Source of the DNA: an uncultured Bacteriovoracaceae bacterium
Lineage (GTDB): Bacteria > Bdellovibrionota > UBA2428
NCBI GenBank assembly: GCA_964538275.1
Contig: CAZIFW010000006.1
Span: 5,826 to 69,825 of the forward strand
Length of the DNA: 64,000 nt
Reading direction: 5' to 3'
Position numbers and translations under genes: made by a program. Below the pieces are notes generated by a model. That model was not told the origin of the DNA and made no database searches. It worked only from the letters and a program-made list of their open reading frames with translations. Below, one piece after another: positions 13,832 through 14,662 of this stretch (position 1 is the first letter of the stretch; each line of letters opens with the position of its first letter).

Positions 13832-14662
13832 ATGAGACCCTTTTTGAGTGCAGGTTTTTTACTCCTATCTGCTTGCTCAAGTTTTAATTCAGAACGCCAT
13901 TTAGCCTCTCAGTTGCCTGAACTGAAACTCCATTCAAAAGTTTTAAAAAATCCTAATAGCTTTAGATCGGGTTCTGATGAAAATGCAGTTCTTCTAAAAC
14001 TTTTTGCAGAATCTGAAAGAGCTTATGACTTGAGTGCTGACCCCGAAGACGATGCGGCCAAGCTTTATTTGGCTGTAAATCAAATCTTAGAGCACGCTCA
14101 GGATACTCCAGACTATGTTGCTAATTTGCTCAGCAAGCCAGAACTCATTGCTTTGCTTCATTACACTCAGAGAGGTTATCGGAATTTGAATTCGGCTCTT
14201 TGGGCAGGACAATTTGGAAGTGATCCCAAAATATTAGAAAAGAAAATTCTTGTGCTTCTTTCTGCTCTTAATAAATTGCCCTTCTATCAATCTCAAGTAT
14301 GGCGAGGTGAAATGTATTCTATATCCTCGGGAGAAAAGAAAGATCCTGTTTTAGCCAAGGAACGTTATGATTCATACGTTATAGGAGAAGAGTTTGTTGC
14401 TAAAGGTTTTTGGAGCACAACTAAAGCAACTCGCATTGAATCGCGAGGTCGTTTTTTAAGAAATGCTATGATCATTTATCGCATTCAATCTAAAACAGGT
14501 CGTAGTATCGAAGAGCTTTCTTATTATCCTGAAGAAGAAGAGGTACTCTTTTTGCCCAACACACGCTTTAAAGTTTTAGATAAAACAATACTCAAGCGGA
14601 TAGCTAACCAAGAATATCCATTTGATTATGCCTATGAAATCAAAATGGAAGAACTTGATTAG
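13832..14662 (+). CDS. Lipoprotein mono-ADP-ribosyltransferase of the C3/VIP2/iota-Ia 'R-S-E' class (ADPrib_exo_Tox-like).
   Basis: Lipobox LLSAC|S (Cys15). ART helix motif LHYTQRGYRNLNSALW (Y-T-x3-Y-x2-l-N-x2-L). Catalytic-Arg context QVWRGE (R158). STS-type motif KGFWSTTKA (S195-T196-T197). ARTT/EXE motif YYPEEEEVLFLPNTRFKV (E235-x-E237, nt 14534-14542). These were read directly from the translated sequence. Confidence 0.7.
   Translation: MRPFLSAGFLLLSACSSFNSERHLASQLPELKLHSKVLKNPNSFRSGSDENAVLLKLFAESERAYDLSADPEDDAAKLYLAVNQILEHAQDTPDYVANLLSKPELIALLHYTQRGYRNLNSALWAGQFGSDPKILEKKILVLLSALNKLPFYQSQVWRGEMYSISSGEKKDPVLAKERYDSYVIGEEFVAKGFWSTTKATRIESRGRFLRNAMIIYRIQSKTGRSIEELSYYPEEEEVLFLPNTRFKVLDKTILKRIANQEYPFDYAYEIKMEELD

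Follow-up and report, generated by a model that had tools for sequence, protein, structure and literature searches.

What is the purpose of an ADP-ribosyltransferase (ART) that carries a lipoprotein signal, and on which side of the envelope would it act? The question is raised by a gene lying between mlaD and a DHH/DHHA1 gene in a 64-kb stretch of DNA from an uncultured Bacteriovoracaceae bacterium (contig CAZIFW010000006.1), hereafter called the window. An earlier note on this DNA had predicted an envelope-anchored ART here. The best explanation, to which we give a probability of roughly 55%, is an ART effector or toxin that is exported through the Sec pathway, processed by signal peptidase II (SPase II), anchored in the outer membrane and directed outwards. 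The features on which this rests are listed in Table 1.

The enzyme was identified from domain matches and catalytic motifs. Residues 94-253 matched the Pfam model PF03496 (ADPrib_exo_Tox) at 42.3 bits (cutoff 23.4, E 6.8e-11), and PF01129 (ART) was matched at 27.7 bits (gathering cutoff 22.3). An aromatic-preceded catalytic arginine, an S-T-S-type motif and a [QE]-x-E motif in the ADP-ribosylating turn-turn (ARTT) loop were all present, and by these motifs the window protein is assigned to the R-S-E clade of ARTs. When it was compared by HMMER with the sequences of solved structures in the PDB, Tre1 (6DRE/6DRH) ranked first, followed by Vis, XopAI, HopU1, Lmo0066, Vip2, C2-I and SpvB. A search of 5.8 billion proteins returned only seven relatives, four of which were clear orthologues (72, 70, 61 and 57% identity); with the window protein these make up the five full-length orthologues referred to below. 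A profile search of 1.84 billion representatives returned 4872 relatives at E<=1e-3, including 704 at E<=1e-10. N-termini were classified in the best 155 of these proteins and then in the 97 with lengths of 200-360 residues (short representatives), among which R158 was conserved in 93, S195 in 91, E235 in 94 and E237 in all 97.

The ARTT loop also bears on specificity. ExE at this position accompanies arginine specificity, as in Tre1, HopU1, Vis, the iota and C2 toxins and the ecto-ARTs; the QxE of C3 goes with asparagine. The window protein lacks the Q-x-E of strict C3 enzymes: E235-x-E237 was found in all five orthologues, and the 94 of 97 relatives with E235 agree. The motif predicts arginine specificity, as opposed to the C3-type specificity for asparagine. 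Since it is ExE and not QxE, the term “C3-like”, used in the earlier note, is acceptable solely as a label for the fold; as a statement about specificity it does not stand, the nearest relatives being Tre1, Vis, XopAI and HopU1.

The fold was modelled with AlphaFold2 from a 7-sequence alignment, giving a predicted local distance difference test score (pLDDT) of 84.3 and a predicted template modelling score of 0.81. Residues 1-27 were disordered (pLDDT <50), and the N-lobe region, with a pLDDT of about 90, consisted of a short hairpin (31-38) and helices at 48-68, 74-91, 96-99, 102-125 and 132-147, followed by the beta core. In Foldseek comparisons with the PDB, XopAI (6k94/6kly) was the best match (E 4e-14), with 240 aligned columns that cover essentially the whole mature protein. 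Further matches, at probability 1.00, were to Tre1, Plx2A, Vis, HopU1, Certhrax, C3, C2-I and ExoS; C3 structures, with 13-17% identity, came lower in the ranking than XopAI, Tre1, Vis and HopU1. Model and matches together indicate the two-lobe ART fold. Residues 20-100 had been proposed in the earlier note as a possible targeting domain, a suggestion that has to be abandoned, as residues 30-150 are modelled as a five-helix N-lobe and only residues ~16-29 as a tether. A sequence search of the PDB with the N-terminal 86 mature residues (16-100) found no match, which accounts for the note's remark that this region has no recognisable motif; by the model, it is recognisable by its fold alone. Within the N-lobe, Y111, N120 and P150 were kept in 91-96 of the 97 short representatives.

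We then consider the signal peptide. Candidate lipoprotein signals were scored with our own coding of a PROSITE PS00013-type pattern (K/R within the first 7 residues, six uncharged residues, [LIVMFWSTAG]2-[LIVMFYSTAGCQ]-[AGS]-C, Cys at 15), together with the G+LPP pattern, and residues 1-15 of the ART passed both. The segment has a charged n-region (R2), an uncharged 10-residue h-region and a lipobox of the form [LVI][ASTVI][GAS]-C whose Cys lies within positions 15-35. As a control for chance matches, the PS00013-type rule was applied across the window; it matched 4 of 64 gene-like open reading frames (ORFs) versus 1 of the 89 remaining six-frame ORFs. BamB (NCBIfam TIGR03300), a classical outer-membrane lipoprotein, was among those four, and its signal, MKLFLYATALLAVSC, has the same length and design as that of the ART, which implies a working lipoprotein pathway; the window itself contains none of the biogenesis genes lgt, lspA, lnt and lol. 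The ART signal has no twin-arginine motif, and it has Leu at -3; Leu or Phe at this position is unfavourable for signal peptidase I (SPase I).

In all five orthologues the initial Met is followed by K or R and then by a hydrophobic core, and a lipobox closes the segment (LSAC in three, LVSC and FISC in the others). Only 3 of the 15 signal positions (M, one L and C) are invariant, a pattern suggesting that a property is conserved here rather than a sequence, and the lipobox Cys is the sole cysteine in each of the five proteins. The residue at +2 is S, A, T, A and A, and never Asp. In E. coli, Asp at +2 is an inner-membrane retention signal, a rule that is not universal. The earlier note's two claims about this segment, that a canonical SPase-II signal with Cys15 lies ahead of the ART and that Ser at +2 gives no inner-membrane retention signal, are thus upheld by the patterns, by lipoboxes in five of five orthologues ahead of an intact ART domain and, under the E. 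coli rule, by the lack of Asp in any of them.

The start codon was examined in the raw sequence. An in-frame TAA at 13820-13822, four triplets 5' of the ATG, makes ATG 13832 the earliest possible start. Downstream in-frame starts are TTG codons 5 and 28 and then ATG codon 161, which falls within the catalytic domain. The Shine-Dalgarno sequence before ATG 13832 is weak (AAAG); in orthologue L032 the equivalent Met is preceded by AAGG. A start 3' of the lipobox would have overturned the earlier prediction, and no better downstream start was found; the N-terminus is kept as a signal peptide. Its sequence makes it almost certain that the ART is exported and held in the cell envelope by a lipid anchor.

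Table 1. Features of the lipoprotein ART gene and of the mlaD-DHH interval (window coordinates).
Feature	Residues	Position	Strand	Remarks
5' leader, GCAAAAAATCCGTTAAACTAAAGTT		13805-13831	+	short, conserved, abuts the ART start codon; possibly translation-initiation region
ORF, predicted lipoprotein ART precursor	1-276	13832-14662	+	complete; 276 aa plus stop, ATG start
Signal peptide, MRPFLSAGFLLLSAC	1-15	13832-13876	+	n-region M-R, h-region PFLSAGFLLL, lipobox L12-S13-A14-C15
Lipobox L-S-A-C	12-15	13865-13876	+	Cys15 predicted acylated first residue of mature protein
Flexible tether	16-29	13877-13918	+	AlphaFold2 disorder; contains invariant Arg22
Linker motif R-H-L-A-S	22-26	13895-13909	+	between acylated Cys and first strand
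ART-fold N-lobe	30-150	13919-14281	+	AlphaFold2 model, Foldseek; includes Y111-T-x-x-x-Y-x-x-L-N120 and S144-A-L-N-K-L-P150
C-lobe, beta-sandwich catalytic core	151-276	14282-14659	+	motif alignments to Tre1, Vis, XopAI
Catalytic Arg R158, in aromatic-R motif W157-R158	158	14303-14305	+	aligns to YRG motif
S195-T196-T197	195-197	14414-14422	+	aligns to STS
ARTT loop E235-E236-E237	235-237	14534-14542	+	aligns to EAE/EQE
175-aa secreted orphan		14685-15212	-	convergent, 22 nt after ART stop
575-aa protein		11230-12957	+	lipoprotein-like signal
Methyltransferase ORF		12967-13767	+	GTG start, 266 aa
Low-GC variable island		11230-15212		four interval genes
160-aa protein		8252-8734	+	15-residue lipoprotein signal
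BamB		42427-43569	+	15-residue lipoprotein signal
Flanking genes set against the ART gene (13832-14662) in the rate comparison		15413-16831; 10265-11086; 16856-18319
mlaD-DHH interval, window				575-aa putative lipoprotein, methyltransferase, ART, convergent 175-aa secreted orphan
mlaD-DHH interval, L003				ART 21 nt after mlaD, then 175-aa gene
mlaD-DHH interval, L004				VWA gene, methyltransferase, ART, 534-aa gene, 175-aa gene
L031, L032 (short contigs)				DHH directly after ART; upstream gene not mlaD

Evolutionary rate sets the ART apart from its neighbours. Between the same genomes, identity was 93-97% for DHH, 94-96% for MlaD, 94-98% for MlaF and 96% for the M32 peptidase, compared with 57-72% for the ART. 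Nonsynonymous divergence (dN) was 0.013-0.058 in the four flanking proteins and reached 0.21-0.37 in the ART, a roughly tenfold difference that is given as relative dN only, since synonymous sites were saturated (proportion of synonymous differences, pS, 0.5-0.79) and ratios of dN to synonymous divergence (dS) are unreliable. The corresponding nonsynonymous proportion (pN) for the ART, 0.18-0.29, was well below its pS of 0.72-0.79, and all five copies were intact with their catalytic residues kept, which argues that the gene is functional as well as fast-evolving. Variation was spread over both lobes, and the motif-bearing segments were the best conserved. Fast protein evolution is typical of exported effectors, toxins and surface proteins.

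The combination of lipobox and ART extends beyond the five orthologues. The 97 short representatives comprised at least 17 lipobox forms, about 44 with SPase-I-like signals and 36 without a signal; these lipobox statistics, and those for the linker motif below, refer to 150 listed representatives out of the 4872 relatives. As many relatives carry Sec signals, export appears to be the norm for stand-alone forms; the longer relatives among the best 155 were multi-kilodalton polymorphic toxins. The earlier note had proposed a search for homologues carrying the same lipobox, and they exist both among the orthologues (five of five) and in the wider family (at least 17 of 97). A rough neighbour-joining tree built from the catalytic core had lipobox forms in at least 7 places, interleaved with SPase-I forms, and one of them, P0008, was sister to the window clade. 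We read the architecture as recurrent, not unique. The more distant relatives P0006 and P0007 have SPase-I-like signals and lack the lipobox Cys. A third protein search with a broader alignment added almost nothing, and a metagenome scan yielded 21 distant loci (27-42% identity), several encoding large polymorphic toxins or cytoplasmic forms; none of the 21 was a lipobox form, and they hold no information on partner genes. No ART relatives were found in a plasmid search. Full-text searches of the literature found no characterised bacterial lipoprotein ART, the sole match being a speculative case from Mycoplasma bovis, a lipoprotein in which 84 residues show 31% similarity to CDTa.

A second feature accompanies the lipobox. 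Arg22 and the segment A25-S-Q-L-P-E-L-K-L are invariant across the five orthologues, in which the linker motif reads RHLAS, RKLAS, RQLAS, REPAS or RELAS. In generalised form, R-x-[PLV]-[AS]-[SNQ], the motif is carried by 10 of the 17 lipobox forms and by none of the 44 SPase-I forms; its single occurrence among the 36 signal-less forms is at another site in the protein. Fisher's exact test gave p = 1.6e-8 for the association, or p = 1.5e-5 with the window clade as a single count, both values coming from the data on which the motif was defined post hoc. Five other clusters at 50% identity have the versions RGPAS, RVPSQ, RIPAS, REPAN and RAPAN, and P0016, P0024, P0047, P0067 and P0068 are among the proteins that carry the motif. 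In the SPase-I relatives P0053 and P0119, which belong to the same subclade, the cleavage site leads straight into the hairpin, with neither lipobox nor motif. The other lipoproteins of the window lack the motif.

A possible parallel is found in XopAI, in which a conserved arginine, R62, in a disordered N-terminal segment ~10 residues before the fold inserts in the ART cleft (PMC6829252). Arg22 of the window protein lies at a similar distance ahead of its fold; docking of Arg22 was not predicted in the AlphaFold2 model. The motif may act as a pseudo-substrate or be auto-modified, may mark the point of release, or may signal export. Carried further, the lipobox ARTs could form an unrecognised class of lipid-anchored arginine ARTs in diderms, whose tether Arg motif (R-x-P/L-A-S/N) is gained and lost with the lipobox and serves either as a pseudo-substrate or auto-ADP-ribosylation switch like Arg62 of XopAI, or as a point of cleavage at which the enzyme leaves the outer membrane for a target cell. 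We hold this as a long shot. Either role, if true, would permit delivery of an ART toxin without a secretion system or an immunity protein.

Taken together, these data fit a path in which the ART precursor would be exported unfolded via Sec, Lgt would add diacylglycerol to Cys15 and SPase II would cut before it, with N-acylation by Lnt probable. Given the lack of Asp at +2, the Lol pathway would carry the lipoprotein to the outer membrane, where a ~14-residue tether would hold a compact two-lobe, arginine-specific mono-ART (R158 / S195-T-T / E235-x-E237). Such an enzyme would never fold in its own cytoplasm and would be kept from cytoplasmic NAD+ and targets, so that no immunity protein would be needed; this would account for the absent immunity gene. 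Surface display, shedding on vesicles and cleavage of the tether are possible routes outwards, and the ART would modify arginines of another cell's proteins where NAD+ is available, within the target cell or in surroundings rich in lysate. On this view, antagonistic co-evolution would lie behind its fast evolution. We know of no periplasmic NAD+ pool, which makes a target outside the producer more plausible and a periplasmic target the less likely option; for the prey targets named in the earlier note we see no basis. The analysis itself shows the ORF, the conserved lipobox, intact catalytic motifs, the fold, the lack of immunity or secretion genes in the vicinity and the contrast in rate with the flanking genes; acylation, outer-membrane sorting, topology, arginine specificity, an outward target and the means of delivery are all steps that we infer.

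Several considerations weigh against an outward-acting, anchored effector. Acylation, sorting and topology are predicted by rules that were set mainly in E. coli. No delivery mechanism is encoded nearby. With dS saturated, positive selection cannot be shown, and relaxed constraint on an exported protein could explain the rate. The stable chromosomal site beside the mla operon, 21 nt after mlaD in L003, also fits a housekeeping or envelope role. Finally, this account gives no role to the Arg motif linked to the lipobox.

The surroundings of the gene are those of a core chromosome, with prpB/prpD, mlaE-F-D, the M32 peptidase, an aldehyde dehydrogenase, pdxS/T, an S8 peptidase, rseP, cdsA-uppS-frr-pyrH-tsf-rpsB, uvrC, bamB and a Mur ligase. 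Across the 64 kb we saw no genes for type III, VI or VII secretion systems (T3SS, T6SS, T7SS), PAAR proteins, ARH enzymes, macrodomains or mobile elements, and no TraA/TraB or NAD-salvage genes. The content of the interval between mlaD and the DHH/DHHA1 gene differs between genomes, with the ART as its constant member (Table 1). The four interval genes of the window have 37.8-38.4% GC, compared with 42-45% in the flanks and 41.5% in the whole window, and mark a low-GC variable island. The DHH/DHHA1 gene was considered as a functional partner and rejected: it is the sole neighbour common to the five loci, yet it is 93-97% identical where the ART is 57-72% identical, and we read its position as inherited housekeeping synteny.

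This setting bears on the strongest alternative, that the ART is an endogenous envelope regulator, a periplasm-facing lipoprotein that modifies an envelope protein or peptide of its own cell as SpyA modifies SpyB. SpyA supplies the precedent, as a C3-like ART that stays with the membrane, is not released and has an endogenous substrate (PMC5061733). The stable locus by mlaEFD, where the ART gene is possibly co-transcribed (21-nt gap in L003, short same-strand gaps in the window), would suit such a regulator, as would the absence of both an immunity gene and a delivery system. We nevertheless consider it unlikely. A regulator of this kind would need NAD+ in the periplasm, where we know of no pool; there is no small spyB-like partner gene, and the upstream genes vary among the orthologous loci. 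A tenfold faster evolution than that of the adjoining envelope genes would also be unusual if the substrate were a conserved endogenous one.

Alternatively, the protein might be a surface or periplasmic NAD+ glycohydrolase or scavenger that splits external NAD+ instead of modifying a protein. NADase activity is found as a side activity in many R-S-E ARTs, an enzyme in the envelope would be well placed to process external NAD+, and no apparatus for delivery to a target is present. However, the two glutamates of ExE and the aromatic-R motif are strictly conserved, a trait of true transferases; a nutrient-scavenging enzyme would not be expected to diverge so rapidly, and no NAD-salvage genes were seen in the window, all of which leads us to rate this idea well below the endogenous regulator.

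Only marginally less probable is a toxin exchanged between kin or delivered by contact in the manner of the myxobacterial SitA proteins, with the 175-aa secreted neighbour as its immunity protein. SitA proteins are lipoproteins of the outer membrane in which the lipobox is followed by a disordered region (PMC8546572). The small orphan encoded convergently 22 nt downstream of the ART is likewise quick-evolving (65-82% identity), and an unrelated small secreted protein is placed in the same way after the distant lipobox ART P0068. SitA toxins, however, have a ~375-aa escort domain, C-terminal nucleases, an obligatory adjacent and co-oriented sitI and frequent mobile elements (PMC8546572). Here the lipobox alone is shared: it is followed by a ~14-residue tether and an ART toxin domain, with no co-oriented downstream gene and no TraA/TraB or mobile-element genes in the window. 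The neighbour, moreover, is convergent; in L004 a further gene lies between it and the ART, and loci L031, L032 and L035 lack it. As an obligate immunity partner the 175-aa protein was rejected, being missing from two of the five orthologue loci (L031 and L032).

Least probable by our estimate, and very improbable, is that the protein is no lipoprotein at all, having an SPase-I signal, an uncleaved anchor or a downstream start that yields a cytoplasmic enzyme: the weak Shine-Dalgarno sequence speaks for it, but the frame is closed upstream at 13820 and the next ATG is codon 161, Met, K/R, hydrophobic core and lipobox Cys persist in five of five orthologues amid differing residues (with AAGG before the Met in L032), SPase I does not favour Leu or Phe at -3, and a cytoplasmic, active arginine-specific ART without immunity would be expected to poison its producer, as the pairing of Tre1 with its immunity protein Tri1 illustrates (PMC8120803).

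Comparison with characterised systems places the outward-acting lipoprotein ART between several of them. Tre1 of Serratia proteamaculans is a mono-ART specific for arginine, whose targets include FtsZ Arg174 (PMC8120803). Of the solved structures it matched best by sequence (E 5e-15 with the family profile), and it shares its fold and its R / S-T-S / E-x-E motifs with the window ART. In contrast, Tre1 is T6SS-delivered (“PAAR repeat-containing protein” in the name of its PDB chain) and has the ARH-type Tri1 as its immunity protein, whereas the window ART has a Sec/SPase-II signal and a longer helical N-lobe, with no PAAR domain and no T6SS or ARH genes nearby. With neither PAAR or T6SS linkage nor an adjacent ARH-type or occluding immunity gene, it does not belong to the Tre1/Tri1 type. 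XopAI and HopU1 (PDB 6K93/6K94 and 3U0J) are the best structural match over the whole mature protein and have the same two-lobe architecture. The XopAI lobes include a five-helix N-lobe, but the protein has neither the STS motif nor the catalytic Arg and is unable to bind NAD+ (PMC6829252); this degenerate active site contrasts with that of the window ART, which keeps all catalytic motifs. Both are T3SS substrates of plant pathogens and not lipoproteins, unlike the window ART with its lipobox. The match to the XopAI family model (NCBIfam NF041404) was weak, covering residues 21-248 at 50 bits against an equivalog cutoff of 300, which places the window protein outside that family. Vis of Vibrio splendidus (PDB 4XZJ) is a single-domain R-S-ExE ART of similar size, matched by the family profile at E 3e-13 in an alignment beginning at residue 65, but its identity to the window ART is only ~20%. 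To our knowledge, no lipid anchor has been described for Vis.

Closest in concept is SpyA of Streptococcus pyogenes, a membrane-bound, extracellular, non-released C3-like ART (PMC5061733), and thus a bacterial enzyme of this fold kept on the membrane outside the cell. It differs in its Gram-positive host and in the spyBA operon, which also encodes the peptide substrate SpyB; SpyA was not among the sequence matches to the window ART, and no spyB-like gene is present. The vertebrate ecto-ARTs (ART1-4, PF01129) are glycosylphosphatidylinositol (GPI)-anchored, arginine-specific R-S-E enzymes that lie on the outer membrane face and use extracellular NAD+. They resemble the window ART in that it matches their model, PF01129, and in being lipid-held, outward-facing enzymes, but they are eukaryotic, with a C-terminal GPI anchor and a disulfide-stabilised fold, whereas the window ART has no Cys besides that of the lipobox. 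Among PADLOC defence models there was no match for the ART, which is therefore not an anti-phage defence ART of that collection, nor for the 575-aa, 175-aa or DHH proteins; the methyltransferase gave a weak match (mad2, E 1.7e-4).

Bacterial ART toxins are known as soluble exotoxins, AB toxins or type III, IV, VI or VII cargo, usually with immunity when they target bacteria. An intact ART whose only trafficking signal is that of a lipoprotein, and which has no immunity gene, would represent a different arrangement, made safe by export and displayed on, or shed from, the envelope. The enzyme family, the type of signal and the idea of a membrane-tethered ART were already known; the earlier note's statement that an envelope-tethered mode is not described has to yield to SpyA (PMC5061733), the GPI-anchored ecto-ARTs and the lipobox ARTs of metagenomic relatives. 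New are the N-terminal lipoprotein anchor on a bacterial ART, which is recurrent and uncharacterised, the Arg motif coupled to the lipobox, and the acceleration relative to neighbouring genes. An architecture present in about one sixth of the short relatives, combined with the Arg motif and fast evolution, offers a testable group in which to ask how lipid-anchored toxins reach NAD+ and their targets. The advance would be incremental unless the linker motif proves to be a new regulatory or release device.

Immediately upstream of the ART gene, a ~25-nt leader with the consensus AAAAAAnCCGyTAAACTnrAGyT is kept in the window, L003 and L004 despite a differing upstream gene; this conservation was not found in the more distant L031 and L032. 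A consensus scan of the interval between the methyltransferase and ART genes found no sigma-70 promoter or terminator and nothing above shuffled expectation. A sigma-28-like reading of the leader was dropped, there being no conserved -35 element and no conservation in L031/L032.

Among the other interval genes of the window, the 575-aa gene is present in the window genome only among the compared loci. Its product has no significant domain match and begins MNFKSFILFLSLLSLINCSKK, with an unusual Asn at -1 of its signal. The neighbouring ORF encodes an S-adenosylmethionine (SAM)-dependent methyltransferase whose L004 counterpart was called at 221 aa; the true start may lie downstream, leaving a hydrophobic N-terminal extension untranslated. 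The 175-aa protein, the sole unannotated neighbour common to three loci, had three homologues only and no Pfam, NCBIfam or PADLOC match; its AlphaFold2 model, with a pLDDT of 38, was too poor for use. The secreted protein in the corresponding convergent position after P0068 (157 aa, L033 3320-3793, minus strand) has no similarity to it. Two further proteins of the window have 15-residue lipoprotein signals: BamB, whose gene is preceded by that of a TPR_21 (YfgM-like) protein, and a 160-aa protein encoded directly 5' of mlaE with a 4-nt overlap. Rfam models (rRNA, tRNA and other) had no matches in the window.

Two observations concern more distant ARTs. The SPase-I-type ART P0006 is followed, ~86 nt 3', by a co-oriented gene for a DUF7790 (PF25046) protein in all of loci L005, L006 and L007, which makes that gene a possible partner of the P0006 lineage; it has no counterpart in the window. 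A phage search returned only ART-core relatives (~33% identity) fused to minor head (Mu F-like, PF04233) proteins, in records H1-H15 (e.g. ON331942.1 22976-23401) and P0159, from phages of Xanthomonas, Stenotrophomonas, Pseudomonas and Variovorax; these fusions are presumably virion-packaged ARTs.

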